From assembly GCA_030669585.1 (NCBI GenBank), contig DAOVDI010000002.1, forward strand, positions 1-61,858: a stretch of DNA of 61,858 nt, read 5' to 3'. The notes under the pieces were generated by a model that saw nothing but the letters and a program-made list of their open reading frames with translations, did not search any database and was not told the origin of the DNA. This document shows positions 2,281-32,443 of this stretch, piece after piece. The position numbers and the translations under genes are program-made. Positions within the stretch are counted from its first letter, which is position 1; each line of letters starts with the position of its first letter. Source of the DNA: Acidobacteriota bacterium. GTDB lineage: Bacteria; Acidobacteriota; Aminicenantia; Aminicenantales; Aminicenantaceae.

Positions 2281-2311
2281 GAGAGATTTATTTTTTCTTG
2301 AGGGAGGAAAC

Positions 2312-3794: not shown

Positions 3795-3808
3795 GAGGAG
3801 ATTAACTG

Positions 3809-8863: not shown

Positions 8864-11758
8864 TTATTGAAAATTTTTAACAAAGTCAAAAAAATCGATC
8901 TCATTGGCATCCAGCCCGTATTTATAGACATATTGGCTTGCAAGGCGTGAAGAAAACATAGCGATCAAATAGGACTTCGGGACACGCTGGAAGATTTTAT
9001 CGATCCCGATGGTCTTGATCAATACGGGAGGACAGCAGCAGGCCGAGACTCTATTGAACAAGGCTTTGTTTACATAGAGCTTTGAGGAAAAGATGGCGTC
9101 TGTGATATTGTTGATCTTTTTACTGACCAGGTCAGAGAGCCGGGAGATGGGGATGTTCTTTTCCTGTTTCTCTTTCCATATGATCTCAAATTCCGCTGTT
9201 GCATTGGCTTTGATTAAATCAAGGATCTCATTGACATAGGTTTTGCGGAAATCCGGGATCTCGCCGTTATTTGCGCACATGTGCTTTTGATGTTCCTCAT
9301 CGCTTAGTGAAAGACTCGCCAGAACCTCCATCGAAGAGGAGGTCACCCCTCCTTTGTTGGCCGAAGCGTCTTTAAAAATAATGACACCTTTTTCCTCAAG
9401 GCGAAGGCGAGCTTCTTGAGTAATAAACAAGTTAGCCCCTTCAACAATATACTTGAAACGCGGATTTCCCTTTTCATCCAGGAATCTCTCCCAATTGTTG
9501 ATATTTACGGAAGATGGGCGGCCTCCGCAGGGGACAAAAAGATCGGCATTAAATCTGGGATCCAAATGGAATGTATTCCGGAATTCAAGACCGTTCGGTA
9601 CTACTTCACCGTCAGGCAATTTTCGGGTGTTTTCACTGATACGAACCAAAAACCCATTGGCGGAAAGGAGAGCAGAATTAAAATTCTCTACCGCAAGACG
9701 GGCTTTTGCCAGCCTTTTAAGCTCTTTTCTGTTAATTCCTTCGGGGTCATATAGTACTCCGGAACCATCGATAATGGCCAGAATAGTATCCTTTGAAATC
9801 ATTATCTCATTGCTTCCAAGGTCTCCGTCCGGTCCTCCTGTCAAAACTTTTGTTATATTTTTTTCTTTTTTACCGACCTTGTCCAGAATATTAAGAACAT
9901 ATTGGTGGACAGAGTTAGTCGTCATGCCGTAAAGATCATGAGGGATGCCTCCCTTGTGTACAGGTTTTCCGGTTGAAAAGGACTTCCAGTAGGGATAATC
10001 CATGACCTTTGCTCTCAATGATGCCCATTCCATAAGGTCAGCAGTGCCCTCATCCGGGCCTAAGAAAAGTATGACCTCTTTCTCGTAGTAATCGAGAATC
10101 CATTCATCTGGCACGATCAAGTCAAGCAATCCATTGATGTATTTTTTGAAGGCGATTTCTGCTTTATCCTGGAACTCCCATCTTAAAAGAATAGTACCTT
10201 TGGATCCTCCTTCAGGGATATCCTTGTTTTTTTTCTGCTGGGTAAATGCCAGATTGTAGTTTTCATCAAAAATAAACTCTGAATTATTTAAATAATTCTG
10301 GTAGTTGTTGGATCGGACGATACGAATTCCCCCGCGGGCGATATCCCGAAACCGGATATGAAATCCCCTCATCTCTCTTGCGATGATGTGAAAGACACCA
10401 AAGGGGTATTCGGGAAAATCGACCTCATTGAGAAATCGCGGGTCATACATAAAGGCGATAGATGTTTTTTCCTCTTTATAGAAATTAGTACGGAGCGTCA
10501 CTTTAATAAACAGGATTATGGCCTGGAAAACAAGCCGGTCGACCTCGGTGATGATATTTTGGCGGATGTCCTCTTTGGCCTTTGCAAGATTTCTTTCAAT
10601 ATTATGATTTTTAACATAAGGATTGAATTTTTTGTCAAAGATCTTGAACAATTTTTTCAGGATTTCGTGGTTGTCAATAAGCGCATCCCAGACTCGTATT
10701 TCGTCGAACGTGTCTTTTGCCAGGCGAGTTTTGAGAGTCCTCAAAATGCCCAGCAGTTCCGGGAAATCTTTTAATTTGTTTGAAAGCCTTACATATTCCT
10801 CGTTGTAACTGCTCAAAAACTGGTGGGAAAAGCTCCATGCCGCCACTCCGAAAACGGTTTCTTGAGCATTGAGTTTCCCGTTTTGGAAGAGGCTGGAGAG
10901 AGGGCTCCCGTAAATGACATAGACAAGACTGATATCTTCAACAATATTCCGGATCAAATCTTTTTCATGGGTGTCTTCCAGGTAAAAAGAATATACGGTT
11001 TTTCCGTTGGAAAATTGCTCGATATATTTGCGTCGTGAATACAGTTTATACGAGTTGAAGACATCAGACACATTGGAGAAAAATCTGGAACTGGAATCCG
11101 TGTTTATCACGACCATGATACGGAGTTCCTTTATGCTTTTTTCATGTGTGACTTCGATCAAAGGGGTTTCCCAGCACAGGGATTTTCGAAGGAGGTTTTC
11201 ATATCTTTTATATGTGTTTTTTGTAGTGGTTTTCAAAAAATTGGCCGATGCGATCTTCTTAAGGTCAACATCATCACATGGACCCTCTGTTGAGTCGAAT
11301 TTGACCACAGTATCAAACCCGTGCGTATAGACCAGGTACATGCGTAAATGTTTCCCACTCAGAGCTTCACCTGATGTCCTGTATGACTGAAGCCTGCAGT
11401 TGGGATACTTTGTTTCGATCCGTTCTTCCACTTCATGAGCATGGTAGTGGTCATCATCAACAAGATAGATGGCTTCTTCTTTCAGTTCTCTGGCCAGATC
11501 TATTTCCATCCTTCCTTTTGCCTTTCCAGCGGCAATGATCCCGGCTGCTTTAATGGCCTCGATGTGGTTGGCCATGGTCTTCAGGGGGGTTGTTTTAAAA
11601 TAATAGTCAGGCATACCCAACTCCGTACCGAAGTATGCAATCTCCTGCCTGATCGTACTGGGTGCATAGTTATTATTCCTGATCATGATCTGTTCAATTT
11701 TTTGGAGTTGTTTTTCCGACAGAGGAGAATGTTCTGCAATTTCTTTAATGCTTTTCAT
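8864..11758 (-). CDS. Large NAD-specific glutamate dehydrogenase (about 110 kDa L-GDH class)
   Basis: 964 aa. Motifs DIARGGIRIV, GPDEGTADLMEW, GGIPHDLYGMTT, TGGPDGDLGSNE and VEGANLFIT…DASANKGGVTSSS, as in the large NAD-GDH family. Confidence 0.75.
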   Translation of the reverse strand: MKSIKEIAEHSPLSEKQLQKIEQIMIRNNNYAPSTIRQEIAYFGTELGMPDYYFKTTPLKTMANHIEAIKAAGIIAAGKAKGRMEIDLARELKEEAIYLVDDDHYHAHEVEERIETKYPNCRLQSYRTSGEALSGKHLRMYLVYTHGFDTVVKFDSTEGPCDDVDLKKIASANFLKTTTKNTYKRYENLLRKSLCWETPLIEVTHEKSIKELRIMVVINTDSSSRFFSNVSDVFNSYKLYSRRKYIEQFSNGKTVYSFYLEDTHEKDLIRNIVEDISLVYVIYGSPLSSLFQNGKLNAQETVFGVAAWSFSHQFLSSYNEEYVRLSNKLKDFPELLGILRTLKTRLAKDTFDEIRVWDALIDNHEILKKLFKIFDKKFNPYVKNHNIERNLAKAKEDIRQNIITEVDRLVFQAIILFIKVTLRTNFYKEEKTSIAFMYDPRFLNEVDFPEYPFGVFHIIAREMRGFHIRFRDIARGGIRIVRSNNYQNYLNNSEFIFDENYNLAFTQQKKNKDIPEGGSKGTILLRWEFQDKAEIAFKKYINGLLDLIVPDEWILDYYEKEVILFLGPDEGTADLMEWASLRAKVMDYPYWKSFSTGKPVHKGGIPHDLYGMTTNSVHQYVLNILDKVGKKEKNITKVLTGGPDGDLGSNEIMISKDTILAIIDGSGVLYDPEGINRKELKRLAKARLAVENFNSALLSANGFLVRISENTRKLPDGEVVPNGLEFRNTFHLDPRFNADLFVPCGGRPSSVNINNWERFLDEKGNPRFKYIVEGANLFITQEARLRLEEKGVIIFKDASANKGGVTSSSMEVLASLSLSDEEHQKHMCANNGEIPDFRKTYVNEILDLIKANATAEFEIIWKEKQEKNIPISRLSDLVSKKINNITDAIFSSKLYVNKALFNRVSACCCPPVLIKTIGIDKIFQRVPKSYLIAMFSSRLASQYVYKYGLDANEIDFFDFVKNFQ

Positions 11759-11787: not shown

Positions 11788-12132
11788 TTATATCTCTAAC
11801 TCAATTTTTTCAAGGATAAGTTCGGTTCCGGCAATGGTCTTTAGGTTCGAGGAGCCGCACTGACTGCATGTGAGGATATAATCATTGCTTATTAATTCAG
11901 CCTTGCAATCCTTGCAATCCATTTTTAACGGAACCTTTTCGATCGTGATCGCCGCCTCTCGTGCGATAGTGTCCTTTTTGTATATGTCAAAGGCGGATTC
12001 TAAAAGTTCTGGCACGGCTCCTGAAAGAACCCCGACCTGTAGTTTGACATGTACTATCTTTTTTGCATTCTTATCATTGGCCTGTTTTTCAAGAATATCA
12101 AAAAGATTGGTGATAAGAGACAATTCATGCAT
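11788..12132 (-). CDS. hypA: Hydrogenase nickel-insertion protein HypA
   Basis: Start placed at the internal MHELSL… (canonical HypA N-terminus), giving 114 aa. Zn motif CKDCK…CSQCGS. The ATG overlaps the hypB stop (ATGCATGA). Confidence 0.85.
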   Translation of the reverse strand: MHELSLITNLFDILEKQANDKNAKKIVHVKLQVGVLSGAVPELLESAFDIYKKDTIAREAAITIEKVPLKMDCKDCKAELISNDYILTCSQCGSSNLKTIAGTELILEKIELEI

Positions 12133-12796
12133 GATCACTACGCAGTTTGTGAAGAGCTTGTATAAAATAGTCAGACAGCTCTTTAATGCCATCCCCATTG
12201 AGCGAAGAAAGGACAAAAATTTCCAGCCTGGGGTTCATTTCGAGCGCTTCTTTCGAGACCCTTTCAATATCAAAAGGCAGGATTGATACCAGGTCCGACT
12301 TGCTGATTATCAAAGAATCCGATGTGATAAAGGCCTTGGGATACTTTTTCGGTTTGTCATCCCCTTCCGGCGTGGACAGCAGCACACATCTCAGATGTTC
12401 TCCCAGGTCAAAACTTGCCGGACAAACAAGGTTCCCCACGTTTTCTATGAACAGGAAATCCAGGTCAGCCGGGATGTCAGGAAACAGCCTGCCTATCATT
12501 TTGGCTTCGAGGTGACATGCTCCTCCGGTCATGATCTGCCAGGCTGGAATTCCTTTTGCCCGGATTCTTTCGGCGTCCCGTTCTGTCTCGATGTCCCCTT
12601 CGATGACCGCCATTTTATAATCCGGTTTTAAGACCTCGGAAAGCTTTTCCAGGAGCATGGTTTTGCCTGCGCCTGGAGAGCTAAGAAGATTGACGGCCAG
12701 TATTCCTTTCTTGGACAGTTGATTTCGAATGTCGGCTGCGATTTTTTTATTGGAACCTAGAAGATCTTCCAGTACAAGAATTTCTTTTTTAGTCAT
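12125..12796 (-). CDS. hypB: Hydrogenase nickel-insertion GTPase HypB
   Basis: P-loop SSPGAGKT. Motif ENVGNLVCPA, then SKSDL. Start chosen at MTKKEIL (12796), overlapping the protease stop by 8 nt. The track start 12823 is an alternative. Confidence 0.85.
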   Translation of the reverse strand: MTKKEILVLEDLLGSNKKIAADIRNQLSKKGILAVNLLSSPGAGKTMLLEKLSEVLKPDYKMAVIEGDIETERDAERIRAKGIPAWQIMTGGACHLEAKMIGRLFPDIPADLDFLFIENVGNLVCPASFDLGEHLRCVLLSTPEGDDKPKKYPKAFITSDSLIISKSDLVSILPFDIERVSKEALEMNPRLEIFVLSSLNGDGIKELSDYFIQALHKLRSDHA

Positions 12797-13280
12797 TATT
12801 ATTGTTTTGTTTGACCAGTTCAATGGTTTTATTAATGATTGCAGGAAGAGTTTTTTCCATTTCTTTTGTCAACCCTTCTCCCAGGGAATATATATTTTTT
12901 GCTTCAATGGCAACGATCTTGATTTCAGCAGGAACCTTCAAATGAATTTGTCTTCCGATCTCAATGGTCTGGGGTATGGACACATAATGGGGGGACGGGC
13001 CTGGGATATACCTTAAGTCTTTTTCCTCCAGAATCGTGATCCGGCCTGTTTTTGGGTCGGATCTTTTAATCGTATCCACAATGATTAGTCGGTCATATCC
13101 GATTATGACGTCCAGGAGAGCAAAACCGGTCAATGAACATTCAAGAAGATCCACATCATGAAAATAAGCGGATAATTTTTTTTCGGTTTCTATTTTTGAA
13201 CGCAGTTCCTTGATAACATGGATGCCTGTACCGTCATCACCATATAATTCGTTTCCTAATCCAAGCACCAGTGTTTTCAT
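12789..13280 (-). CDS. [NiFe] hydrogenase maturation endopeptidase (HybD/HoxW/FrhD family), stand-alone
   Basis: Start at MKTLVLGLGNELYGDDGTG (13280). Motif IIVDTI (second metal Asp) and SPH (His ligand). About 163 aa. Confidence 0.8.
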   Translation of the reverse strand: MKTLVLGLGNELYGDDGTGIHVIKELRSKIETEKKLSAYFHDVDLLECSLTGFALLDVIIGYDRLIIVDTIKRSDPKTGRITILEEKDLRYIPGPSPHYVSIPQTIEIGRQIHLKVPAEIKIVAIEAKNIYSLGEGLTKEMEKTLPAIINKTIELVKQNNNND

Positions 13281-13373
13281 CAGGATATTATAAACGAAAT
13301 AAAGATCTCGGGTCAATTTGCATGCTTATCCAACACCTCAACGAGATAAATGGTTATCTTATACAGGAAAAAG

Positions 13374-14495
13374 TTATTTAGGGTCTACCGGCTCCGCGTT
13401 TTTTACTTTGGGCAGGAAGACTGTGAAAGTGCTTCCTTTTTCGCTCTCGCTGGAAACCGTGATTTTGCCCTTATGTGCCTCTACAATCTTTTTAGCAATG
13501 GACAGTCCCAGACCGGATCCTTTTTGTTTTTGGCTTTCACTCCGCTTGACCCGGTAAAACTGATCAAAAATGAATGGAATATGCTCTTTTGGGATCCCGA
13601 TCCCGGTGTCTGACACATCGGTTATAATATATTTATCATCTTCCCGAATGGAAGTTTTCACAGAGGCCCCGGACCCGCTGTATTTAATGGCATTACTTAT
13701 GAGATTTGTAAAAACATGCTCAAGTGTTTCCTCATCGCCAAACACCATCTTGTCAACAGAAGCTTTGTCGAGTTTAAGGGAGATATTGTTTTTTTGAGCC
13801 AAAGGCTTATAAAAATCAATTGTTTTTTTCAGAAGGTTAGCCAGGGAAAAGGGTTTACCTTGATCGATAATATTGCCGGCATTCATCCGGGCGATATCCA
13901 GCCATTCATTGATGAGATTAAGAAGACCTTCCAGTTTGCTTTTTGCCCTGCTGAGCATTGCTGTCTTTTTTTCTTCCTCCTTGATGATGCCGCCTAAAAT
14001 GACTTCAAAAAATTGGATAACAGTAACGATCGGGCTTCTCAGTTGATGAGAGACCATTGTAATGAAGCTTTCTTCAATGAGTTTTTTTTCAAGGCGTAAT
14101 TTTTCTGTCTCCATTTTGAGCTTCCGTCGTTCCAGCCCCCGCTTGATGATGATCCTTAATTCTTCGGGAGTGAACGGCTTGGGCAGGAAATCATAAGCCC
14201 CTTTTCGCATGGCTTCAACAGCGGAATCCACGGTTGCATAACCTGTTATAACGATGGCTATGATGTCAGGATCAATATCCGCTATTTGGTCCAGGACATC
14301 AAAACCGCTTATCCCAGGCATTTTTAGGTCGATTAGGACAATGTCGGGTTTGAATTGGATTACTTTTTGGATTCCCTCTGATCCATTTTCTGCTGTTTCA
14401 GTTCGGAACCCGTCTTTTTTAAGAATGAGGCCGCATGAATCACGCATGGTTTCTTCATCGTCGATAACGATGACCATGGGTTTTTCTTTATCCAT
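13374..14495 (-). CDS. Hybrid sensor: N-terminal receiver (REC) plus HisKA plus HATPase_c histidine kinase
   Basis: 373 aa. REC motifs VIDDEE…DLKMPG…KPF. Coiled-coil linker. H-box MVSHQLRSP. N box NLISNAIKY. G boxes DTGIGI and GSGLGLSI. Confidence 0.8.
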   Translation of the reverse strand: MDKEKPMVIVIDDEETMRDSCGLILKKDGFRTETAENGSEGIQKVIQFKPDIVLIDLKMPGISGFDVLDQIADIDPDIIAIVITGYATVDSAVEAMRKGAYDFLPKPFTPEELRIIIKRGLERRKLKMETEKLRLEKKLIEESFITMVSHQLRSPIVTVIQFFEVILGGIIKEEEKKTAMLSRAKSKLEGLLNLINEWLDIARMNAGNIIDQGKPFSLANLLKKTIDFYKPLAQKNNISLKLDKASVDKMVFGDEETLEHVFTNLISNAIKYSGSGASVKTSIREDDKYIITDVSDTGIGIPKEHIPFIFDQFYRVKRSESQKQKGSGLGLSIAKKIVEAHKGKITVSSESEKGSTFTVFLPKVKNAEPVDPK

Positions 14496-14546
14496 TTTGA
14501 TACCTCACAACAATAATGTTTTTGCCTAACCGAAAATGGCCTTGAT

Positions 14547-14954
14547 TCAGCGATTAATAAGCTTGTCGATCCGGGCTAGCAAATCAGCAGGTTTGACCGG
14601 TTTGTCAATATAATCGTCAGGGCCGAGCATGCCTTGTTCATCCCCTTTGAATTGAAATCTGGAGCCGGTCATTTCCTTGACGGCTGAAATGTGAATGATG
14701 GGCGTATCTTTGACAGAATCGAATTCTTTTGCCGTTTTGATATTGTGGCACAGGGAAAAGCCATCAAACAGACTGTCCATCATAATGTCAAGAAGGACCA
14801 GATCAGGCTTCTCGGCCAAGATCTTCTCTTTTCCCTGGTCAGGACTGGATGCGGTTATTACATCGTAATTTGCAGAGTTCAGGATAGGAGTCACCGCATC
14901 GATGAAATCAGGATCGTCATCAATTACTAAAATTTTTCCTTTGATCGTTTCCAT
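14547..14954 (-). CDS. Single-domain response regulator (REC)
   Basis: 135 aa. Motifs ILVIDDDPD, LLDIMMDSLFDGF and DKPV. Confidence 0.75.
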   Translation of the reverse strand: METIKGKILVIDDDPDFIDAVTPILNSANYDVITASSPDQGKEKILAEKPDLVLLDIMMDSLFDGFSLCHNIKTAKEFDSVKDTPIIHISAVKEMTGSRFQFKGDEQGMLGPDDYIDKPVKPADLLARIDKLINR

Positions 14955-14965
14955 TGTATTCTCCT

Positions 14966-15337
14966 TTATTGGTTGAAAACATTGTTGATCGCCAATTTTA
15001 ATTCGTCTTTACCAAAAGATTTTATAAAATAAAAAAATATGTCTTGCTCTCTGACTTTTGCTTCCAGCTGTTTTGTGTTTTTTTTTGTCGTCATTATAAT
15101 TTTCATGCCGGGGGAAATATTCTTAAGGATGTTAACCGCCTCATAACCTTTCATTTCAGGAAGGTTAACATCGATTATCAGACATCCAAAATTCCTCATA
15201 GTGATTTTAATTACAGCATCGGTCAAACATTTGCCAGTTTCTGTTTTATAATTAAGATCTGTTAAGTAGGAAGAAAGACTGTTTCTGTCGTTATCATCCG
15301 GATCGATGATCAAAATACTTTTCTCTTCTACAACCAT
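14966..15337 (-). CDS. Single-domain response-regulator-like protein (REC)
   Basis: 123 aa. Motifs ILIIDPDDND, LIIDVNLPEMKG and a CheY-like length. The first acidic pocket is slightly atypical (DPDD). Confidence 0.7.
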   Translation of the reverse strand: MVVEEKSILIIDPDDNDRNSLSSYLTDLNYKTETGKCLTDAVIKITMRNFGCLIIDVNLPEMKGYEAVNILKNISPGMKIIMTTKKNTKQLEAKVREQDIFFYFIKSFGKDELKLAINNVFNQ

Positions 15338-15532: not shown

Positions 15533-15626
15533 AAAAAAAATCGTCCAGAGACGGATAAATTTGATGCAGGAAAAAGGTAGGAAGTATGATATTTCATACT
15601 AAAAGTGTCTACTGGACGATTTTTTT
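15533..15626. terminator. Long-loop hairpin flanked by an A8 run and a T7 run; candidate bidirectional terminator or structured RNA
   Basis: TCGTCCAGAGAC (15541-15552) pairs with GTCT-a-CTGGACGA (15607-15619), giving 12 bp with one bulge. An inner hairpin GTATGA-tattt-TCATAC is present. An A-run precedes it and a T-run follows, so either strand reads stem plus U-tract. It lies about 40 nt downstream of the group-3b large-subunit stop. Confidence 0.35.
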
Positions 15627-15662
15627 ATGAAAAAGTGTTATTTTAACCTGGTGATAACCTCC

Positions 15663-17405
15663 TCAATTTTTTAAATGATCGATGATCTTATCCATGGCGT
15701 CCAAGACCTGGGGAGAAATGTTTTGACCAAAGTCGGTGGACTGAGGCTGGATTCCCAAAACAAAAGAATTTTTTATCTGTTCATTGTGGATCTGCCCGGA
15801 TAGGAATGGAATGAATTTATGGCTGAGGGCTGCATTGTTAAGGATATATTCGACTGGGAACATAGTGATCTTGCCCGCGCGCTCACCGAAATTCACCGCA
15901 TCAATAAAAATTATCGGCCTGTCTTGTGCCCTTTCCTGGAGGGCTGTGTCTGCTTGAATGTCGGATTCAAGAAAGACATTTGCCATCCCGGATTCCTTTA
16001 ATACTGAGGCCAGTTTGAGTCCGATCCTGTCATCAGAGCGTTCATCATTTCCAACGCCAATAAAGACAGGCGCAGTCTGAGTTGTGATCTCTGTCAGCCG
16101 GTCTTTCCAAGCTTCCTGCTGGGCCTGTTCAACCTGTGCCGCATGGGCTGAACAGCTTATGCATGGATCGAATGCGCGGACAATCAAATCCATTCTTGCT
16201 TTTATTTCTTCCTCTTTGCCTTTGTCTAAAAGTTCCTGGGCGGCGATATGACAGTATCGTTCGATGTCTTCACAATTCATGGCGGTTGGAGTAATGATAT
16301 CAACATATTTTACCAGGCCATCCTCTATTTCGTGATGATGGACCAACAAACCGCGGGGCGCCTCTACCAATCCGGTTCCAGCGCCATTCTTGGTTGTATA
16401 ACTGATGACCGGAGGATTTTCTTCATATCCGAGGAGGATATCCGCAAGCTGAGGAATACGCTCAAAACAGTACATAATCTCAAGAGCCTGGGCTGCATTG
16501 TGGTAAAGCGGATTCTTTTTCCAATGCTCATTGAAATATTTTTTATACATTTCGCCGGCATTGCCCTCAAGTCTTTCGCCCAGAACGTTCACACGGGCCA
16601 GTGCTCCGACAGAAAAGGGTTTCCCGTTGTATCGACTGCGTTTGGCATAAGAATGAGATACGACAAATTCATTATTGAACGATTTATAATCATCCCTTTT
16701 AAATTTTTCCCCAGTGGACAGGAGGATCTCCTCTCCCCAGAATCCGTACTTGTTATTACCGGGTTCACAGCAGGCATAAAGAGTATCGCTCTCTGGGATG
16801 GTGGGATAATCGAGTTCACAGAACAGCTTAACCGCCTTGAAGACAAATGGCATAAATTGTTGTGCCCGGTTCTTGATCCAGATCAGCTCTTCTCTGGAAG
16901 GGAATTTTCCAAATCCTCCGATGATCGGGTTTTCACCATGGATGAATCGGCCGCTGTAAGTCTTCATGATATGATTTCCGAAATTTTTCATTTCCAGGCC
17001 GATCTTGACTTCAAATCCATAGTTGGCGGCCATCGCAATGGCGTTGGGATATCCCAGATAATCCGCAAGAGCCAGGATAAAAGTGTGCAGAGAGTGGCTC
17101 TCGATCATCTCACCCATATGCATCATTTCCCGAGAATAATAGACTTTGGGAGAAACCTTTACTGACAAGGCATTTTCTATGGCGCGAAGTACGGCATTTT
17201 TATGAGAAAGGGTGCAGATAGCGCAGATTCTCGGGGAAATACTGACATCCTCTTCAGGTGTTCTTCCTACAGTTAATCTTTCGATCAGGCGCGGGCCTTC
17301 AAAGATATTGAATTTGACATCTGTGACGACTTTCCCGTCGATCGTAGCTGAAATGCCCCCGTTTCCTTCCACTCGGGTCAAATGTTCTATAGTTATGGTT
17401 TTCAT
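15663..17405 (-). CDS. [NiFe] hydrogenase large (alpha) subunit, group-3b-like, with a C-terminally fused maturation-endopeptidase domain
   Basis: 580 aa. N-terminal RVEGNGG and RICAICTLSH (RxCxxCxxxH). C-terminal DPCISCSAH ends at His421. About 159 further residues follow, carrying protease-family motifs FIGVGNDERSDDRIG, IIFIDAV and LSHKF. Confidence 0.85.
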   Translation of the reverse strand: MKTITIEHLTRVEGNGGISATIDGKVVTDVKFNIFEGPRLIERLTVGRTPEEDVSISPRICAICTLSHKNAVLRAIENALSVKVSPKVYYSREMMHMGEMIESHSLHTFILALADYLGYPNAIAMAANYGFEVKIGLEMKNFGNHIMKTYSGRFIHGENPIIGGFGKFPSREELIWIKNRAQQFMPFVFKAVKLFCELDYPTIPESDTLYACCEPGNNKYGFWGEEILLSTGEKFKRDDYKSFNNEFVVSHSYAKRSRYNGKPFSVGALARVNVLGERLEGNAGEMYKKYFNEHWKKNPLYHNAAQALEIMYCFERIPQLADILLGYEENPPVISYTTKNGAGTGLVEAPRGLLVHHHEIEDGLVKYVDIITPTAMNCEDIERYCHIAAQELLDKGKEEEIKARMDLIVRAFDPCISCSAHAAQVEQAQQEAWKDRLTEITTQTAPVFIGVGNDERSDDRIGLKLASVLKESGMANVFLESDIQADTALQERAQDRPIIFIDAVNFGERAGKITMFPVEYILNNAALSHKFIPFLSGQIHNEQIKNSFVLGIQPQSTDFGQNISPQVLDAMDKIIDHLKN

Positions 17406-18184
17406 TTCGGCTCCTTATCAAGCTGCTGAAAATAATCTGTTATCTTTGTGCCGGAGAAATTGGCCATTTTTTTCTTGATCTCATCCACAGAGAACCCTTT
17501 TTCCTTTAAAAGATAGAATTCTGATGTCACATTTGCACCTTCCACCGGTCCCCAACATCCATTACACGGGATGTTGTGATTGGGGCAGATGGAACCACAT
17601 CCGTCAGCCGTTAATGGTCCAAGACATAATTCTCCTTTTTTTAGGAGGCAGTCATTTTCGTTGTATTTGCATGTGACGCACACCGGGTTGGGATAATGTT
17701 CAGGCGGATTGCCCTTCAGTATGCGGGTGAAAAAATTGAGAAACTGCTCTTTGCTGACAGGACAACCCGGCAGATAAAAATCTACATCGATGAAGGCATC
17801 TATGGGTTTGGACTGGACAGGTTTTGTATGGGTGAATTCCGTGTTGCCATAGACTATTTTAAGGTTCTTTTCCCATTCTTTGGGGTCGATGAAACGAGCC
17901 TGGACACCACCCAAAACAGCACAGGTTCCAAAAGCTACAACTGCTTTTGCGCGTTTTCGTATATCTTTTAATTCTTCGATCTCTTTTTCTGTTGTGACCG
18001 ATCCTTCGACAAGGGCTAGATCCAGTTCTCCATCGGTGTTGTTGCTCATGACCATGGCAAAGGATTGGATATCGACCGCATTAAAAATATCGATCAGTTC
18101 CATTTCGCAGTCCGTGACAAGCAAGCAATCACCCGCACAGCCCGTCAATTCATAAAATCCAATTTTCAGTTTATCGTTTTTCAT
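17402..18184 (-). CDS. [NiFe] hydrogenase small (delta) subunit, group-3b-like
   Basis: 260 aa. Motifs ELTGCAGDC, FGTCAVLGG, YLPGCP and Cys-rich distal-cluster motifs. 4-nt overlap with the large subunit. Confidence 0.8.
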   Translation of the reverse strand: MKNDKLKIGFYELTGCAGDCLLVTDCEMELIDIFNAVDIQSFAMVMSNNTDGELDLALVEGSVTTEKEIEELKDIRKRAKAVVAFGTCAVLGGVQARFIDPKEWEKNLKIVYGNTEFTHTKPVQSKPIDAFIDVDFYLPGCPVSKEQFLNFFTRILKGNPPEHYPNPVCVTCKYNENDCLLKKGELCLGPLTADGCGSICPNHNIPCNGCWGPVEGANVTSEFYLLKEKGFSVDEIKKKMANFSGTKITDYFQQLDKEPK

Positions 18185-18194
18185 AGTATCTCCC

Positions 18195-19055
18195 TTAGAT
18201 GAGCTCCCTCATGTGTAAAACATCCCAGTATGTGAATACAGGACCGTCAAGACAGGTGTATATGTAGTCGATAGCACAGTGTCCGCATTTTCCTACGCCG
18301 CATTTCATCCGTCTTTCCAGTGTCATCAGGATCTGATCCTTGGGAATGTCCAGTTTGATCAGTTCATTGATGACAAATTTGTACATGATTGGAGGTCCGC
18401 AAACAAGGGCTACTGTGTTTTCGGCATCAAGATCTTTTACTTTTGGGAAAAGAGTGGTAACAACTCCGACATTTTCAGGCCACTGTCCTGTATCGTCTTC
18501 ATCTACACTCATATAGCACTCGAGATCGTCTCTTTCCTTCAGAGCAAAAAATTCTTCCCTGAATATCATTTCTGAGGGCCGTTTGGCGCCATGGAGCAGG
18601 ATAACACGGTTGAAGAGATTCCTATTGTCCAGGCAGTACAGCAGTACTGACCGCAGCGGAGCGGCCCCTAAACCACCCATGATAATGATGATATCCTTAC
18701 CCTCCATTTTCTCTGTTGGAAACCCTTTGCCATATGGGCCTCTTAATCCGATCAAGCTGTTTTCTTTAAGGCGAAAGATGGAATCGGTAACGATCCCGGT
18801 CTTCCGGATGCAAAACTCGAGAAGCCCTGGACGTGATGGGGTTGAAGAGATGGAAAATGGAGCTTCCCCTGCTCCGAGTACTGAGATCATGGCAAATTGG
18901 CCTGTATCGTATTTAAAAGACAGGGCTTTGTCCATGTCTGTGATTCGAACCTGAAAAAATTTTACGTCATCGGTCAAATGATAGGTCCGGACTATTCTTG
19001 CAGGCTCAGGCATAAATGGGTTTTCCTGAATGATGTTTTTGGTTTCTCCGTTCAT
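18195..19055 (-). CDS. Sulfhydrogenase gamma-like subunit (FAD/NAD(P)-binding, 2Fe-2S; AsrB/PyrK-like)
   Basis: 286 aa. Flavin-reductase fold motifs (GQFAMISV, IIIMGGLGAAP). C-terminal CGVGKCGHC…C cluster motif. Confidence 0.8.
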   Translation of the reverse strand: MNGETKNIIQENPFMPEPARIVRTYHLTDDVKFFQVRITDMDKALSFKYDTGQFAMISVLGAGEAPFSISSTPSRPGLLEFCIRKTGIVTDSIFRLKENSLIGLRGPYGKGFPTEKMEGKDIIIIMGGLGAAPLRSVLLYCLDNRNLFNRVILLHGAKRPSEMIFREEFFALKERDDLECYMSVDEDDTGQWPENVGVVTTLFPKVKDLDAENTVALVCGPPIMYKFVINELIKLDIPKDQILMTLERRMKCGVGKCGHCAIDYIYTCLDGPVFTYWDVLHMRELI

Positions 19056-20113
19056 TTTGTCACCTCTTTGGCGAACCTGTCCCAGAAAGCATCCACCGTT
19101 TCATTATCCAGGCTTTGAGCAACAGTTTTAATATTAATATCCACAGGGCAGGTTTCAATGCATCTTCCGCAGCCGACGCATGCCGGCTTTCCATACTTGG
19201 AGATGTAGGCTTGTAATTTGTGTGTATAATAAAGTTTTAATCTCAGCGATCGAGCTTCCCGGAAATTCTCACCTCCGGCGACTTCTGAATAACTTTCCAG
19301 TGTGCAGGCATCCCAACAGCGGGAAATATGGGATGCGTTTTCCGTGAGGAAAGGTTTGTCATTGATATTGTAACAGTTGCACGTTGGACAGACATTGGAA
19401 CAGGACCCGCAAGCCAGGCATGCCTGACCCAACTTTTCCCATAAGGGATCTTGATACTTGAGTTCCATAAGGTCGGGCATGTTTTTAAAATCGATGGATA
19501 CCGAAAAAGCTTTATCTTTTTCTTCTCTCCATTCAATGTACTTCTGAATGTCCTTGTCAGTAATGTTTTCATCAAAAAAGTCCGGTTTTCTTCTGATAAG
19601 ATCATCTCCTTTGCTGGAGCCGATCCAGACAAGATATTCTTTTTCCAGCTCGCTGAAGAACAGGTCGTATCCTTCTTCGATAATGTCGGTGCCTGCTGAT
19701 TTGCATAAACAGTGTTCATCAGGCCAGCAGGAATGCCCAAGAATTAAAGTGTTGTTTCGGGCTTCGATATAATAAGGGTCATTATAATGATGTTTATAGA
19801 ACTGATCCATGATGAGAATGGCATGTATGTCGCAGGGATGCAGCCCGAATATGATCTTTTCAGTCACGTGGGAAAAATCAGCTTCATATTTTTTCTCCGT
19901 GGCTTTGAACATGTTGAAAGACGGAGGAAGAAAAATTTTTCTGGGAGGAAGAATTGTGCGTGTGTAGTCCAGATCGATCTGAGAAAAATCTTTGATGATT
20001 TGAAAGCTATGTTTTCCTTCCGGCTTTTTCGTTGGGGCCCAAAGGTCTGCGCCTTCTGAAATGGACTCAAGAAATGGAAAAAGATATTCTTTTTTTAATT
20101 TGAAGATCCTCAT
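19052..20113 (-). CDS. Sulfhydrogenase beta-like subunit (4Fe-4S; AsrA-like)
   Basis: 353 aa. Motifs CLACGSCSNVCPTCNC and CVGCGRCIETCP. The order beta-gamma-delta-alpha matches the Pyrococcus-type group-3b operon. Confidence 0.8.
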   Translation of the reverse strand: MRIFKLKKEYLFPFLESISEGADLWAPTKKPEGKHSFQIIKDFSQIDLDYTRTILPPRKIFLPPSFNMFKATEKKYEADFSHVTEKIIFGLHPCDIHAILIMDQFYKHHYNDPYYIEARNNTLILGHSCWPDEHCLCKSAGTDIIEEGYDLFFSELEKEYLVWIGSSKGDDLIRRKPDFFDENITDKDIQKYIEWREEKDKAFSVSIDFKNMPDLMELKYQDPLWEKLGQACLACGSCSNVCPTCNCYNINDKPFLTENASHISRCWDACTLESYSEVAGGENFREARSLRLKLYYTHKLQAYISKYGKPACVGCGRCIETCPVDINIKTVAQSLDNETVDAFWDRFAKEVTK

Positions 20114-20367: not shown

Positions 20368-21723
20368 TTAGGAAAGATTGTATTTTTTAATTTTTGACAG
20401 GAGTGTTTTTCGGTCGATACCAAGAGCTTTGGCCGTATGACTTCTGTTCCCCTGGTGAGCGTGGAGAACTGTGGCGATGTATTCATTTTCAATCTGTTCC
20501 ATTGTTTTATACTTCCCGCCGACAGGAGTCAACAAGGAAAAGCTGGAACTGATCCCGTGATAGATGAGATCTTCCAGCCGGATCTCATCATCTGCTGAAA
20601 GAACAACCGCTCTCTCGATAGTATTTTCCAGCTCTCGGATGTTTCCTGGCCAGTTATATTCGCTCAGGGCTTTTCTTACTGTTGAAGAAATATTCCTTAT
20701 GCTTTTTTTTGTTTTTATATTGTACTTCTGCAGGAAATGACCGACGAGCAGGGGAATATCCTGTTTTCTTTCTCTCAGCGGAGGGAGGTGAATAGGAACA
20801 ACACTCAAACGATAGAACAGATCGTCTCTGAATTGTCCATGCCTGACGCATTCTGCAAGGTTTTCATTTGTTGCAGCAAGGATGCGGATGTCGACCTTGA
20901 TGGGTTTGGTGCTGCCGATACGCGTGACTTCCCGTTCCTGTATGACACGAAGGAGCTTGGCCTGGATATTCAGGCTGATATTGCTGATCTCATCAAGAAA
21001 TATCGTTCCCCCGTTTGCAACTTCAAATCGTCCGTGTTTTGTCTCGATTGCGCCAGTGAACGACCCTTTTACATGACCAAAAAGTTCGCTTTCAAACAGT
21101 GTTTCAACCAGCGCGCCGCAGTCGACTACGACAAAAGACGATTCCTTCCGCAGGCTGTGTTTATGGATCTCTCTTGCAAGCAGTTCTTTTCCTGTCCCGC
21201 TTTCACCTGTGATCAGAACAGTGCTGTCAGTCGGGCTTACACGCCTCACCATTTCAAAAACCGCATTCATAGCAGGGCTTTTACCGACGATCATATCGAA
21301 TTGGATCCTATCCTTCAGCTCTTTGCGGAGGTGGATATTTTCAAAATAGATTTTACGGCTTTCCAGTGCCTTGTGAACAATAACACGCAGCTCTCCAGGA
21401 CTAAAAGGTTTGGCCAGATAATCAAATGCGCCTCTTTTGATGGCATCAACAGCTGATTCGATTGTGGCAAATCCAGTGATGATGATCACCGGTATTTCCG
21501 GATTTCCTTCTTTGATTTTAGTGAGGATGTCCATCCCGCTGGGGCCGGGCATTCTTAAGTCCAGAAGAACGACTTGAAAAGTTTCCTCAATGATGGCTTT
21601 TAGACCCTCAATGCCATTTTGGGCATACTTGACTCTGAAACCCTCTTTTTTTAGCACCTGGCTGCATGAGTCCAGGATGGCTTCTTCGTCATCTATGACC
21701 AGAATATTGGCGGTTTCAGTCAT
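20368..21723 (-). CDS. Sigma-54-dependent response regulator (NtrC family: REC plus AAA+ plus HTH)
   Basis: 451 aa. REC (VIDDEE…DLRMPG). Walker A GESGTGKE. GAFTGA-like GSFTGA. Motif ESELFGH. C-terminal Fis-type HTH (HTAKALGIDRKTLLSKIKKY). Confidence 0.9.
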   Translation of the reverse strand: MTETANILVIDDEEAILDSCSQVLKKEGFRVKYAQNGIEGLKAIIEETFQVVLLDLRMPGPSGMDILTKIKEGNPEIPVIIITGFATIESAVDAIKRGAFDYLAKPFSPGELRVIVHKALESRKIYFENIHLRKELKDRIQFDMIVGKSPAMNAVFEMVRRVSPTDSTVLITGESGTGKELLAREIHKHSLRKESSFVVVDCGALVETLFESELFGHVKGSFTGAIETKHGRFEVANGGTIFLDEISNISLNIQAKLLRVIQEREVTRIGSTKPIKVDIRILAATNENLAECVRHGQFRDDLFYRLSVVPIHLPPLRERKQDIPLLVGHFLQKYNIKTKKSIRNISSTVRKALSEYNWPGNIRELENTIERAVVLSADDEIRLEDLIYHGISSSFSLLTPVGGKYKTMEQIENEYIATVLHAHQGNRSHTAKALGIDRKTLLSKIKKYNLS

Positions 21724-23701
21724 TTTTGTTCTCTCTATTCAGAGGCAGCTTTACAATAAATTCCGTTCCCTCATCAATCTTGCTTGACACCTCGATGGTT
21801 CCTTGATGTTTTAGAATGATGCTGTAACTGATAGCCAGGCCAAGCCCGGTTCCCTGGCCTACTTCTTTTGTGGTGAAAAATGGTTCAAAAAGCCTTTTAA
21901 GATCATTTTCTTTTATGCCGCATCCTGTGTCCTTAAACCGGATGTCGATGAATTTTTTATTCTTATTGAGCGAAGTGCTGATGCTCAGGGTCCCGTTTCC
22001 ATTCATGGCCTCAGCAGCATTCATGATAATGTTGATAAACACCTGCTGCAGTTGGGCGCTATCTGCAATGATCTTATACAGGTCTTCAGCATAATTCTTT
22101 TTTATGGTGATATTCTGGAAGAGGGATTGGCCTTCTATTATGGAGAGGGAGGTTTCCAAGGATTCGTTAATATCGATTTCCGTCGTCTCGGGTTCTTTTG
22201 GCCTGGCAAATTCGAGAAGACCTTTAACAATATCCTTGCATCGGGATGTTTCTTTGACGATTTTTTTCAAATTATCATAATAGGGGCTGTCGGCGTTTGT
22301 CCCCTCAAGTAAAAGATGGCTGTAGATTAGGATGCCGCCCAGGGGATTGTTTATTTCATGGGCAACACCTGCTGCCAGTTTTCCCAGGGAAGCCAGTTTT
22401 TCCGATTGAACAAGGTGCGCCTGCATCTTCCGTAATTCTTGTGTGCGTTCCTCGACTTTTTTTTCAAGGGTTTTTCCCCAGTTAACCAGTTCTTTGTTGG
22501 CTGTCCTTAGATTTGCGGTCATCTGATTGAATGAAGTTGCCAGGTACCCAAACTCATCTTGAGATCTCACTTCGACCTTGTGAGAAAGATCTCCTTTCGC
22601 TATTTTTTGAGTCGCTTCGACCATCTGTGTTAACGGTTTGATGATGCTGGAGGTAGAAAAATTGAGCATTACCAGAAGCACGACGACGCTGAGAGCAGCC
22701 AAAAGGCTGAATATCAGCATTACTTGTTTGACAAGATCCAGGTAAGGTTTTTCCATTATTCCAACATAAAGGATCCCGATGATCTTTTGGTCGACATTTT
22801 TGATAGGATCATAAGCAGTTATATACCAGTCATTGACGACAAAAGCTCTGTCTATCCAGGCCTTTCCTTCTTTGAGGACAGCGGAGTTGACTTCCTTGGA
22901 AACACGTGTGCCGATGGCCCTTTCCCCGTTATCTTTTTTTACGTTGGTGGAGATCCGAAGATCCTTCTGAAAAATGGTTGCTGTCCCGATCTCTCTGCCT
23001 TTATATTTTTCTTCTTTGTAAACAAGTTCCTTGACAAGATCCACGATCTCATAATTTCTATTCAGAAGAATGCCGCCGTAGAGGACTCCCATCAGGGTGC
23101 CGGATCCGTCAACAATCGGGGCAGCGGCTTTAAGCATAATTCCGTTGGTTTCGCGATCCTCCGGCCGTTCAGCGGCTTTTGGTGTGGGGATAAAAACCAT
23201 GTAAGCCTGATCGGCCAGGTCTTCTCCTTCTTTTAAAAGTTCTTTTCGAGAGATGATCTGAGGATGGGCAAGGACGCCTCTTTTAAGAGCCCATTTTATG
23301 ATCTTATCTCCTGACTGGTCATCTCCGATAATACCAGGGTTCCGTGTTCTGACAATCACTTTACCGGTATTATCTGTTAAAGTCAGGATATCGAGTCCGG
23401 TTTCTTCCCGCAGACGGCTGAGGTTTTCAAGAAGAGTGTTGTATTTTTTATTTTGTATATTTTCCTGCAGACGATTGCGTCCTGCTGTAAGATTGACAAT
23501 GTCTTTTATCTCTTTTAGCTTGGAATTAAAGACCATTCTTGCAGCGTCAAGGTCATGTCTTACTTTAGCCTGGGCTTGTGAAATCAAGGTGCTTTTCATG
23601 AGCCTGGAACCGAAGTAAAGGGATATCAGTCCACCAATGATAATAATTATCAAGAAGACAAGTATAATTTTTTTTCTTAGAGAAAAACGAGGAAATAACA
23701 T
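21716..23701 (-). CDS. Sensor histidine kinase (2 TM, large extracytoplasmic Cache-like domain, HAMP, HisKA, HATPase_c)
   Basis: 661 aa. TM1 ILVFLIIIIIGGLISLYF. An extracytoplasmic domain of about 300 aa, then TM2. HAMP (…DEFGYLATSFNQM). H-box AAGVAHEINNPL. G boxes DTGCGI and GTGLGLAI. 8-nt overlap with the NtrC gene. Confidence 0.85.
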   Translation of the reverse strand: MLFPRFSLRKKIILVFLIIIIIGGLISLYFGSRLMKSTLISQAQAKVRHDLDAARMVFNSKLKEIKDIVNLTAGRNRLQENIQNKKYNTLLENLSRLREETGLDILTLTDNTGKVIVRTRNPGIIGDDQSGDKIIKWALKRGVLAHPQIISRKELLKEGEDLADQAYMVFIPTPKAAERPEDRETNGIMLKAAAPIVDGSGTLMGVLYGGILLNRNYEIVDLVKELVYKEEKYKGREIGTATIFQKDLRISTNVKKDNGERAIGTRVSKEVNSAVLKEGKAWIDRAFVVNDWYITAYDPIKNVDQKIIGILYVGIMEKPYLDLVKQVMLIFSLLAALSVVVLLVMLNFSTSSIIKPLTQMVEATQKIAKGDLSHKVEVRSQDEFGYLATSFNQMTANLRTANKELVNWGKTLEKKVEERTQELRKMQAHLVQSEKLASLGKLAAGVAHEINNPLGGILIYSHLLLEGTNADSPYYDNLKKIVKETSRCKDIVKGLLEFARPKEPETTEIDINESLETSLSIIEGQSLFQNITIKKNYAEDLYKIIADSAQLQQVFINIIMNAAEAMNGNGTLSISTSLNKNKKFIDIRFKDTGCGIKENDLKRLFEPFFTTKEVGQGTGLGLAISYSIILKHQGTIEVSSKIDEGTEFIVKLPLNRENKND

Positions 23702-23794: not shown

Positions 23795-25255
23795 TTATCG
23801 TTTGAGTTGTTTAACCAATTCACCGGCTCTATCGTAGATGTTGATCTCGAGCGGCATATCTCCGGGCAGACAATGGGTTCCGCAGGCATGGCAGGGGTCG
23901 TACGGCCTGAAACCCATCTCGACCATATTCAGCAGTCCGTCGTCTACCTTACCTCCTTTGATGAAGGATTTTGCCGCTTTTTCAATGGACATATTGATGG
24001 CGGCAGCATTGTTAAGAGTGGCAACGATAAGATTCGCCTCGGTGATAATGCCTTTTTCATCTGTCTTGTAGTGATGAAAGAGCGTGCCGCGGGGGGCTTC
24101 GACAACACCGAATCCCTCATCCGGAGTTTTAGTCGGAATGTTGCGGATATGTGTGTTTGTGATATCCTTGTCCTCCAGCAGCTGAACCATTGTTTCCGCA
24201 GCTTGAAGCGCTTCGATCAGCCGGGCCCAATGAAAAGCCAGTGTGTGGTGAGAGGGCCTTCCTCCAAGGACCTCGAACATCTTTTCATAATGCTCCTGGG
24301 CCAGCGGCGACTGCATCCCATCCGCTGCGTTGAGGCGTGCAAGTGGTGCGACTCTGAACACACCTGAGTCTTTTCCTTCCTCAAAGCCTTTCCATCCGAC
24401 ATTTTTTAAGAATGGGAACTTGATATAAGTCCAGGGCTCTACATGCTCGGAGATGTGGTCCAAATATTCCCGGGCCTTAAATTTGGCGAATTCCTTTCCG
24501 TCCGGGTCGACCACACGGATGTCGCCGTCATAAAATTCGACTTTGTTGTCCGGTGTGACCATTCCCATGTAATAGGTTTTAATTTGATAGGCGTCGCCGA
24601 CAACAATGTCAACGTATTCCTTATTTTGAAGTACCACATCGTTGAAGATTTTCAAGGCGAATTGAGCAAATTCCACTGTTTCCTTGGCCCATCCTAAAAA
24701 TTCGACTCTGTGTTCTTCATCCAGCCCTTTGGAAACGCCGCCTGGAAGACCGCAAACCGGATGTATGATCTTTCCACCCAGATAGTTGATGATCTCACGG
24801 GTCAGCCTTCGGATTTTTATGACCTGTCCTCCGATCTCCAGGCCGACTTTGCCGATGACACCCAGAATGTTGCGTTCGGCCTTTGGAACGTTCGGGCCCA
24901 CAACAAAATCAGGCCCTCCCAGGAAGAAAAAGTGTAGAGTGTGATCCTCGAACTGGAAAGAATTGTAAATAAGTTCTCTGATTTTTTTTGCAGTCGGAGG
25001 TGGTTTGACATGCCAGAGGTCGTCTACGGCTTTTGTTGAAGCCATGTGGTGGGCGGTCGGACAAACGCCGCAGATGCGCGGAGTGATCCGCGGCATCTCT
25101 TCAGCAGGTCTTCCTACGGCGAACTGCTCGAACCCGCGCAATTCTGGTATCTGAAGGATAGCACGGTCCACATCTCCATTGTCATCAAGAAAGATCTCTA
25201 TCTTGCCGTGTCCCTCCAGGCGCGTAATCGGATCAATGGTAATTCTTTTGCTCAT
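23795..25255 (-). CDS. mvhA: [NiFe] hydrogenase large subunit, Mvh-type (group-3c-like)
   Basis: 486 aa. Motifs RLEGHGKIEI, RICGVCPTAH and C-terminal DPCHACGTH, followed by a 25-aa cleavable extension. Adjacent mvhG and mvhD. Confidence 0.85.
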   Translation of the reverse strand: MSKRITIDPITRLEGHGKIEIFLDDNGDVDRAILQIPELRGFEQFAVGRPAEEMPRITPRICGVCPTAHHMASTKAVDDLWHVKPPPTAKKIRELIYNSFQFEDHTLHFFFLGGPDFVVGPNVPKAERNILGVIGKVGLEIGGQVIKIRRLTREIINYLGGKIIHPVCGLPGGVSKGLDEEHRVEFLGWAKETVEFAQFALKIFNDVVLQNKEYVDIVVGDAYQIKTYYMGMVTPDNKVEFYDGDIRVVDPDGKEFAKFKAREYLDHISEHVEPWTYIKFPFLKNVGWKGFEEGKDSGVFRVAPLARLNAADGMQSPLAQEHYEKMFEVLGGRPSHHTLAFHWARLIEALQAAETMVQLLEDKDITNTHIRNIPTKTPDEGFGVVEAPRGTLFHHYKTDEKGIITEANLIVATLNNAAAINMSIEKAAKSFIKGGKVDDGLLNMVEMGFRPYDPCHACGTHCLPGDMPLEINIYDRAGELVKQLKR

Positions 25256-26235: not shown

Positions 26236-26659
26236 TGATGTCTCCTTTCATAATATTTAATGGTCCTAATTCTTTGATCTGTTCTGTGAATTCGTCGCAT
26301 ACATTCTGGAATTTAGCGCCTTCAGCAGCTGAAACCCATTCCAGTCTGAGCCGTTCTTTTTCTATACCGAACTGTTCAAGCATTTTTCTTAAAAGGCGAT
26401 GTCGTCTCAAAGCTTTATAGTTTCCTTCTTTGTAGTGGCAGTCTCCTGGATGACACCCTGAAATGAGGATGCCGTCCGCCCCCTCTTTAAATGCTTTTAT
26501 CACAAACTGAGGGTCAACACGTCCGCTGCACATAACTCGAATAATTCGTATATTCGGAGAATATGTCATTCTGGCAGTTCCGGCAAGGTCTGCACCTGTA
26601 TAGGAACACCAGGTGCATAGGAAACCAATTAGTGTGGGATCGAAATTCTCGCTACTCAT
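26216..26659 (-). CDS. mvhD: MvhD/FlpD-type hydrogenase iron-sulfur (2Fe-2S) subunit
   Basis: 147 aa. Motifs FLCTWCSYTGADLAG, VMCSGRVDP and GCHPGDCHY. GGAGG RBS upstream. Confidence 0.85.
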   Translation of the reverse strand: MSSENFDPTLIGFLCTWCSYTGADLAGTARMTYSPNIRIIRVMCSGRVDPQFVIKAFKEGADGILISGCHPGDCHYKEGNYKALRRHRLLRKMLEQFGIEKERLRLEWVSAAEGAKFQNVCDEFTEQIKELGPLNIMKGDINEYREA

Positions 26660-26680
26660 TGGCAGCCTCCTTCCATTGTT

Positions 26681-28438: not shown

Positions 28439-28449
28439 GTTTTATCTCC

Positions 28450-30282: not shown

Positions 30283-30295
30283 TATCCACGTCCTT

Positions 30296-31705: not shown

Positions 31706-31710
31706 GTTTA

Positions 31711-32442: not shown

Positions 32443-32443
32443 T

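Follow-up and report, generated by a model that had tools for sequence, protein, structure and literature searches.

A group 3b [NiFe] hydrogenase large subunit fused in frame to a predicted maturation protease in uncultivated bacteria

We analysed a 61,858-nucleotide (nt) stretch of DNA (the window; contig DAOVDI010000002.1 of assembly GCA_030669585.1) from an Acidobacteriota bacterium of the family Aminicenantaceae. It carries a single gene in which the large subunit of a group 3b [NiFe] hydrogenase is continued, in the same reading frame, by a domain related to the endopeptidases that mature such subunits. This arrangement had been pointed out in an earlier note made from the sequence without database searches. 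The gene and its parts are the following.

15663..17405, minus strand: fused gene, group 3b [NiFe] large subunit plus A31 maturation protease; an uninterrupted open reading frame (ORF) of 580 amino acids (aa) with a TGA stop
16143..17405, minus strand: large-subunit module, residues 1-421, assigned by homology and fold
17202..17231, minus strand: N-terminal NiFe-binding motif RICAICTLSH, residues 59-68, read from the translation
16143..16169, minus strand: C-terminal NiFe-binding motif DPCISCSAH, residues 413-421, read from the translation; cleavage predicted after His421
16110..16142, minus strand: tether AAQVEQAQQEA, residues 422-432, remnant of the ancestral extension plus junction, assigned by comparison of extensions
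16071..16109, minus strand: residues 433-445 (WKDRLTEITTQTA), for the most part in a helix (432-443 of the model); Trp433 near-invariant
15666..16070, minus strand: A31 protease core, residues 446-580, supported by TIGR00072, alignment to 5zby, Foldseek and dN/dS
16029..16031, minus strand: Asp459, first metal ligand (Asp16 of HycI, Glu16 of HybD), from alignment to 5zby and 2e85
15900..15902, minus strand: Asp502, second metal ligand (Asp62), from the same alignments
15819..15821, minus strand: His529, third metal ligand (His90 of HycI, His93 of HybD), from the same alignments

The 580-aa product passed the cut-offs of both PF00374, the large-subunit family (103 bits, cut-off 25.8), and PF01750 HycI, the protease family (25.6 bits, cut-off 23). 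Residues 4-421 matched the soluble hydrogenase I (SHI) alpha subunits of Pyrococcus furiosus and Thermococcus kodakarensis, their best relatives in the PDB, with E ~1e-98, in contrast to the next hydrogenase groups (3c/3d), which matched at 1e-43 or weaker. SHI structures were also the top Foldseek matches of the AlphaFold model of the whole protein, with a target-normalised TM of 0.89 for P. furiosus SHI (9nf0_H). As the note had proposed, homology to SHI alpha and the operon partners described below identify the N-terminal 421 residues as a predicted group 3b large subunit of the HyhL/SHI alpha type, which reaches its C-terminal motif DPCISCSAH at His421. The fused protein stayed below the NCBIfam HydA and ShyA equivalog cut-offs (367 versus 880 bits), and thus is a homologue, rather than an equivalog, of the archaeal enzymes. 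In its N-terminal motif Ala replaces the Gly of the RxCGxCxxxH-type motif; Arg59, Cys61, Cys64 and His68 are invariant across 78 homologues, and Asp413, Cys415, Cys418 and His421 of the C-terminal motif in all 229 fused proteins collected here (see below). Exactly 159 codons follow His421 without interruption (15666..16142) before the TGA, the same number that the note had counted.

Sequence and fold comparisons indicate that this extension is a bona fide A31 (HycI/HybD-type) hydrogenase maturation protease. It scored 60.3 bits on TIGR00072, 'hydrogenase maturation protease' (cut-off 47.45), and aligned to T. kodakarensis HycI (Tk-HycI; 5zby) with E 5e-7, as well as to E. coli HycI and Tk-HybD; the alignment to HybD and HycI that the note had proposed as a check thus gave a match to the endopeptidase family. 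GVGNDERSDD of the fused domain is in register with GIGNDVRGDD of the solved HycI/HybD structures, IIFIDAV with VVFVDAI, and LSH with STH, which places the three motifs that the note had quoted as protease signatures on the metal-ligand positions Asp459, Asp502 and His529. These three residues, together with Asp458 and the Gln-Pro of the GIQP motif, are invariant in 229/229 fused proteins, every one of which also matched an A31 hidden Markov model (HMM) built in this analysis. Because the Foldseek list for the whole protein held large-subunit matches only, we modelled the protease domain separately (pLDDT 84, pTM 0.81). The 11 best PDB matches of this model were all hydrogenase maturation proteases (TM 0.54-0.70), the best being 5zby (TM 0.69). 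Within the Aminicenantes clade the protease module is less conserved than the hydrogenase module (mean pairwise identity 48% versus 79%), and dN/dS in the least saturated pairs was 0.21-0.27 for the protease and 0.07-0.11 for the hydrogenase module. The protease module is under purifying selection, though more divergent than its partner, and by its HMM scores, fold, invariant residues and dN/dS the fused domain looks functional.

The fusion is not peculiar to the source organism. A whole-protein search of 5.8 billion proteins returned 120 clusters of 64-95% identity, all 572-592 aa long, whose named sources were metagenome-assembled genomes (MAGs) of Candidatus Aminicenantes or Acidobacteriota; another member of the 90% cluster of the window protein is likewise annotated Ca. 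Aminicenantes. When the protease domain was compared, without a profile, with 1.84 billion representatives, just 3 of the top 150 matches were long proteins, the remainder being stand-alone proteases of ~130-220 aa or shorter fragments. When P0135, a 616-aa protein of Ca. Eisenbacteria, was used as the query, a whole second clade of fused proteins of 570-640 aa was revealed, with names including Eisenbacteria and Latescibacteria DG_63; the possibility that P0135 was a singleton artefact was rejected on this ground. Altogether, the search for long large subunits with a C-terminal protease, which the note had recommended, yielded 229 distinct fused proteins of 570-640 aa from independent assemblies, in two clades: clade A (Aminicenantes type) and clade B (Eisenbacteria/Latescibacteria type). 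The note had named in advance, as the observation that would undo its reading, a stop or frameshift after DPCxxCxxH; the 229 in-frame homologues exclude it. A sequencing frameshift or assembly artefact was rejected as well, since the frame is kept in these 229 sequences and in 14 species-level genomes. The fusion is thus conserved in at least two uncultivated bacterial clades, and it is kept in hundreds of uncultivated sediment bacteria. Five of the fused genes (loci L002, L005, L006, L009 and L013) come from MAGs titled 'uncultured Eubacteriales bacterium'. As these genes cluster tightly inside the Aminicenantes-type clade, the labels of these five TPA (third-party annotation) assemblies are probably wrong.

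The origin of the fused gene was traced in a genome scan with one genome per GTDB species, in which the junction and protease region served as the tblastn query. The 80 loci examined were the best matches to this protease-containing query, a choice that biases the proportion of adjacent genes upward and leaves their breadth unaffected. In 14 of the 80 loci, all of the Aminicenantes-type clade, the fusion is in frame, with extensions of 157-177 aa. In the other 66 the large subunit stops after an extension of 6-15 aa, mostly 6-9 aa (MIKIIRK, LVKVVKK, FLDVKFVNR), and in 63 of these 66, from many bacterial and archaeal phyla, the next gene downstream, on the same strand, encodes a protease. Relative to the large-subunit stop, its start codon falls between -46 and +81 nt where one could be called, and the protease domain sets in no more than 115 nt beyond that stop. 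A fusion spread over dozens of phyla was considered, as tblastn covered query residues 1-180 in all 80 loci, and was rejected, as the ORFs are split in 66.

The unfused pairs closely resemble the fused gene. Among stand-alone proteases, P0133 is the closest to the fused domain; its gene adjoins a 3b large-subunit gene (locus L015, 'bacterium Zod_Metabat.1399') and starts 1 nt after the stop of the latter. From the His codon to the GxG motif of the protease the fused genes measure 81-84 nt and the closest unfused pairs 83-91 nt, the latter in the +1 or +2 frame. Since these distances match and differ by frame, the fusion is a collinear merger of adjacent cognate genes through loss of the stop codon and an indel of 1-2 nt. 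The note had called the protease the large subunit's own, and the comparison bears this out: the closest stand-alone relatives adjoin 3b large-subunit genes, and the junctions are collinear within 1-2 nt, which makes the fused protease the cognate of its large subunit.

The junction itself retains traces of both parents. In the fused proteins (n=229) the residue after the cleavage-site His (P1') is Met, Leu, Ala or Ser, and position +4 is Val, Ile or Leu, a pattern like that of unfused 3b extensions of 7-9 aa (MIKIIRK, LVKVVKK, LVEVRKKE). Residues 422-428 correspond to the old extension (consensus H|M-A-E-V-K-K-A, compared with H|M-I-K-I-I-R-K in unfused enzymes), and residues 433-445 to an N-terminal helix that the closest stand-alone proteases also have, such as MEALRIKLLSIF of P0133. 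The stretch that the note had taken for a linker of about 25 aa is therefore not a neutral spacer: it combines the C-terminal extension of 7 aa inherited from the unfused enzyme, a short junction and the N-terminal helix of the protease. AlphaFold gave pLDDT below 50 over residues 416-428, so part of the C-terminal motif is also disordered in the model, and the tether is predicted to be flexible. In clade B, low-complexity insertions of 40-50 aa occur on either side of the helix that carries Trp433 (P0279, P0283, P0135), in P0279 as repeats of the SRTENTPRTENA type. As these insertions lie before or after the helix, both junctions are tolerant of length, and the connection behaves as a flexible tether.

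Trp433 (16107..16109), 12 residues past the cleavage-site His, is kept in 228/229 fused proteins of both clades. The equivalent position is Leu or Phe in the stand-alone proteases inspected (L015, L034), and Trp433 may serve in docking, specifically in fused proteins. Between codons 411 and 473 the window gene has no ATG, GTG or TTG in frame. The protease domain is thus made only as part of the precursor, and its separate synthesis from an internal start was rejected for this gene.

Neighbour-joining trees of the hydrogenase module (200 bootstraps), which follow one protein and are weak for counting events, placed clade A as monophyletic in 200/200 bootstraps and nested it among unfused 3b enzymes whose extensions are 7 aa long. 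Monophyly of clade B was recovered in 193/200, only with four unfused proteins (P0298-P0301) included; the unfused proteins nested in clade B retain an extension of 7-20 aa. For two of them the genes were located.

1796..3921 of locus L081: P0301, unfused large subunit within clade B
3001..5333 of locus L082: P0299, unfused large subunit within clade B

On the contigs of both, the next gene encodes a nucleoside phosphorylase and there is no adjacent protease, which looks like a secondary loss of the fused protease domain. The lineage has thus passed between adjacent-gene, fused and domain-lost states. A single origin of all fusions was not supported, clades A and B forming an exclusive group in 6/200 bootstraps, and the fusion possibly happened more than once. 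If it arose repeatedly in separate lineages, the arrangement would have been selected for.

How would such a protein mature? Proteases of the A31 family cleave in a nickel-dependent manner after the His (or Arg) of DPCxxCxx[HR] on the Ni-loaded precursor, as described in the passage of PMC12134894 that cites Theodoratou 2000. Their docking requires the cofactor and takes place on the body of the large subunit, not mainly via the extension, in a transient interaction (PMC5299533). The group 3b enzyme P. furiosus SHI becomes active only once FrxA or HycI has cut off its tail of 4 residues (PMC2865534). By analogy, the Hyp machinery, including the nearby HypA and HypB, would load the large-subunit module with Fe(CN)2CO first and with Ni second. 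The tethered protease would recognize the Ni-loaded site via Asp459, Asp502 and His529, as free HycI/HybD do, and would cut the His421-Ala422 bond. This would yield a mature subunit of 421 aa, closing around the cofactor and pairing with the delta subunit, and a 159-aa protease equivalent to the stand-alone enzyme with an N-terminal tail of 11 residues. The fusion would secure a 1:1 supply of the protease and keep its local concentration very high. The protein may make its first cut within the same molecule, and the freed protease could then also act in trans; strict single turnover is not required, because the domain, once free, would amount to a normal protease and be able to cut more than once.

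We consider it likely that the fused domain cleaves at His421, and the enzyme is probably self-maturing. We give about equal shares of this likelihood to a first cut in cis and to cutting between precursors, since the models carry no inter-domain geometry. Of a bolder version we are more doubtful: here the protein is an obligate intramolecular, single-turnover, nickel-gated autoprotease, whose A31 domain also replaces the long 'assembly peptide' and holds the site open until Ni is inserted. If true, it would be the first self-cleaving [NiFe] hydrogenase.

Several points weigh against cleavage by the fused domain, or against parts of this scheme. For every member, cleavage is a prediction from genes. 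The AlphaFold output comprises pLDDT, pTM and secondary structure, and the reach of the active site to His421 in cis lies outside its scope. The shortest forms have a disordered tether of ~10 residues before the helix. A subclade within fused clade B has lost the domain and is without an adjacent protease, so the fused protease can be replaced. The adjacency at 63 loci was counted among the 80 best tblastn matches, and this ranking is biased towards loci with an adjacent protease. Finally, a stand-alone protease lies 2.4 kb downstream of the fused gene and could in principle do the cutting.

12789..13316, minus strand: stand-alone A31 protease, HybD/HoxW/FrhD-like (ATG start at 13280), TIGR00072 98 bits

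Another reading is that the fused protease fails to reach its own tail. Precursors would then cut one another, or the stand-alone protease would start and the freed domains would continue; the fusion would then be a device for stoichiometric co-expression, not for autoproteolysis. The shortness of the minimal unstructured tether (~10 residues) is in keeping with this, as is the released domain, which could not be told apart from a normal protease acting in trans, P0133 for example, and so is the mode of docking, with the large-subunit body and not the extension as the site (PMC5299533). Cis cleavage is, however, excluded by no observation; the C-terminal motif is also disordered in the model (416-428), which gives extra reach, and the clade B linkers of up to ~75 residues would make cutting in cis easy. 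We regard exclusive cutting in trans as unlikely.

The stand-alone protease, whose existence at 12789-13280 the note had correctly reported, raises another possibility, namely that it does the cutting and that the fused domain serves mainly as an intramolecular chaperone, or 'assembly peptide', keeping the active site open. C-terminal extensions are described as assembly peptides in passages of PMC6769069 and PMC7294309, and a stand-alone protease is syntenic in 6 of the 14 fused loci, 2.4-7.4 kb downstream. A purely steric role, however, would need neither the metal ligands nor GIQP, which are invariant in 229/229 proteins while about half of the domain residues are conserved. Moreover, the stand-alone protease belongs to a different subfamily (HybD/FrhD-like) and has an obvious client of its own, the second large subunit of the window. 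Taken together, this makes a mainly chaperoning domain very improbable in our judgement.

Some [NiFe] large subunits work unprocessed (Ech, CooH and sensor types), and these are subunits without any extension. A domain that is never cleaved off, and remains a permanent part of the mature enzyme in, for example, a regulatory or structural role, would put the fused protein beside them. This we find scarcely credible: unprocessed P. furiosus SHI is inactive (PMC2865534), cleavage-site features are conserved among the 229 fused proteins, and the interchange of separate-gene, fused and domain-lost states fits two separable products. Cleavage at His421 by the fused domain thus remains the reading we prefer.

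The fused protein can be set beside several known systems. Unfused 3b operons with a downstream protease (L015 with P0133, and others in Cloacimonadota, Omnitrophota, Heimdallarchaeota and Thermoplasmata) share with it the hydrogenase group, protease subfamily, gene order, His-to-GxG distance and extension consensus H|xxxVxxx. They differ in the stop after an extension of 6-9 aa and in a separately translated protease, often in another frame or overlapping. P. furiosus SHI (HydBGDA, with FrxA and HycI) and T. kodakarensis HyhL (with Tk-HycI, 5zby, and Tk-HybD, 5ija) have a large subunit ~39% identical and of the same fold, and Tk-HycI is the best structural match of the fused protease domain. 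There, however, the extension has 4 residues (VVRL), and the proteases are encoded elsewhere and act in trans. The A31 pairs HycE/HycI and HybC/HybD of E. coli have the three-ligand metal site and the GxGNxxxxDD, xxDA and GIQP motifs of the fused domain; they differ in extensions of 15-32 aa, in separate proteases and in hydrogenase group (4a and 1). The next-best fold match after the A31 enzymes (7c4x) was GPR, the spore germination protease of family A25, structurally a distant relative. Self-cleavage thus has a precedent in the fold superfamily, for the GPR zymogen processes itself; unlike the fused domain, GPR has an unrelated substrate, lacks a nickel checkpoint and is not fused to its substrate.

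The note's author knew of no described example, and we likewise found no description of a natural fusion of protease and large subunit in the open-access papers and preprints searched, though such sequences sit unremarked in public databases. The parts and chemistry are those of known [NiFe] maturation; what is new is that substrate and protease are covalently joined, and that two or more uncultivated bacterial lineages have conserved this architecture. To our knowledge, the docking of A31 proteases on a Ni-loaded large subunit is structurally unknown, and no protease-large subunit complex was found among the solved structures searched. The fused protein offers a natural 1:1 covalent complex of substrate and protease with a short tether, in which a ligand mutant should trap the pre-cleavage state for structural work. 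It could also serve as a self-contained maturation module when NAD(P)-linked 3b hydrogenases are produced in a foreign host; for recombinant P. furiosus SHI, a specific protease had to be supplied separately (PMC2865534). As a 'Rosetta-stone' fusion, it supports the one-protease-one-hydrogenase rule in group 3b. Public annotations call the fused proteins either 'hydrogenase maturation protease' or 'sulfhydrogenase subunit alpha'. Since each name covers one function, surveys that count one of the two will mis-score the genomes of Aminicenantes, Eisenbacteria and Latescibacteria.

The fused gene closes an operon of the order beta-gamma-delta-alpha, which is typical of SHI, and the genes for nickel insertion lie beyond its 3' end.

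19052..20113, minus strand: group 3b beta subunit (4Fe-4S), ShyB/HydB models, sulfhyd_ShyB 3e-88
18195..19055, minus strand: group 3b gamma subunit (FAD/NAD(P)-binding, Fe-S), ShyC/HydG models
17402..18184, minus strand: group 3b small (delta) subunit, PF01058, NCBIfam sulfhyd_HydD 6e-56 (HydD/ShyD models)
12125..12823, minus strand: hypB, PF02492, nickel insertion
11788..12216, minus strand: hypA, PF01155, nickel insertion

Further upstream lies the operon of a second hydrogenase (23795..31160).

30666..31160, minus strand: NuoE-like
28450..30315, minus strand: NuoF-like
26681..28438, minus strand: Fe-S/NuoG-like
25252..26235, minus strand: small subunit of the second hydrogenase
23795..25255, minus strand: second [NiFe] large subunit, 486 aa, with DPCHACGTH and a conventional 25-aa extension, NCBIfam VhuA 438 bits

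By its Mvh/Vhu-like large subunit and NuoE/F-like partners, the second hydrogenase resembles the bifurcating NiFe-HydABCSL (PDB 7t2r) or the Mvh type, and it is presumably served by the stand-alone protease. An HMM scan of all window ORFs found two A31 domains, the fused one and that of 12789..13316. The remark in the earlier note that one stand-alone protease is present for two hydrogenases thus holds for the window, with its two large subunits and one stand-alone A31 enzyme, as a count over 62 kb and not over the genome.

A scan for terminators and promoters at the operon ends gave counts no different from the shuffle level. Just downstream of the fused gene, at ~15533..15627, a long imperfect inverted repeat (ATCGTCCAGAGAC ... 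GTCTACTGGACGAT) was seen by eye; it has A-run and T-run flanks and an inner hairpin, and was missed by the terminator scan.

Several further genes of the window lie on the minus strand. Two candidates for the control of hydrogenase expression are encoded between the two hydrogenase operons (20368..23701), a Cache/HAMP histidine kinase and a sigma-54 activator that carries a receiver domain. The interval 13374..15337, between the fused gene and the protease/hypB/hypA block, holds three genes with receiver domains, including one for a hybrid REC-histidine kinase. Upstream of the second hydrogenase, 31157..34139 encodes GHKL-ATPase, PHP-domain and DRTGG-domain proteins together with a 454-aa [FeFe]-hydrogenase-like protein, a cluster that looks regulatory. 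The 454-aa protein combines Fe_hyd_lg_C with a 'putative Fe-S cluster' domain, and may be a sensory protein of the HydS type. Heterodisulfide-reductase-like genes (a partial FAD/NAD-binding, a CCG-domain and a 4Fe-4S gene) follow at 34937..37247, minus strand, and at the other end of the region, 8864..11758 on the minus strand encodes an NAD-specific glutamate dehydrogenase of 964 aa, which belongs to the large bacterial type.

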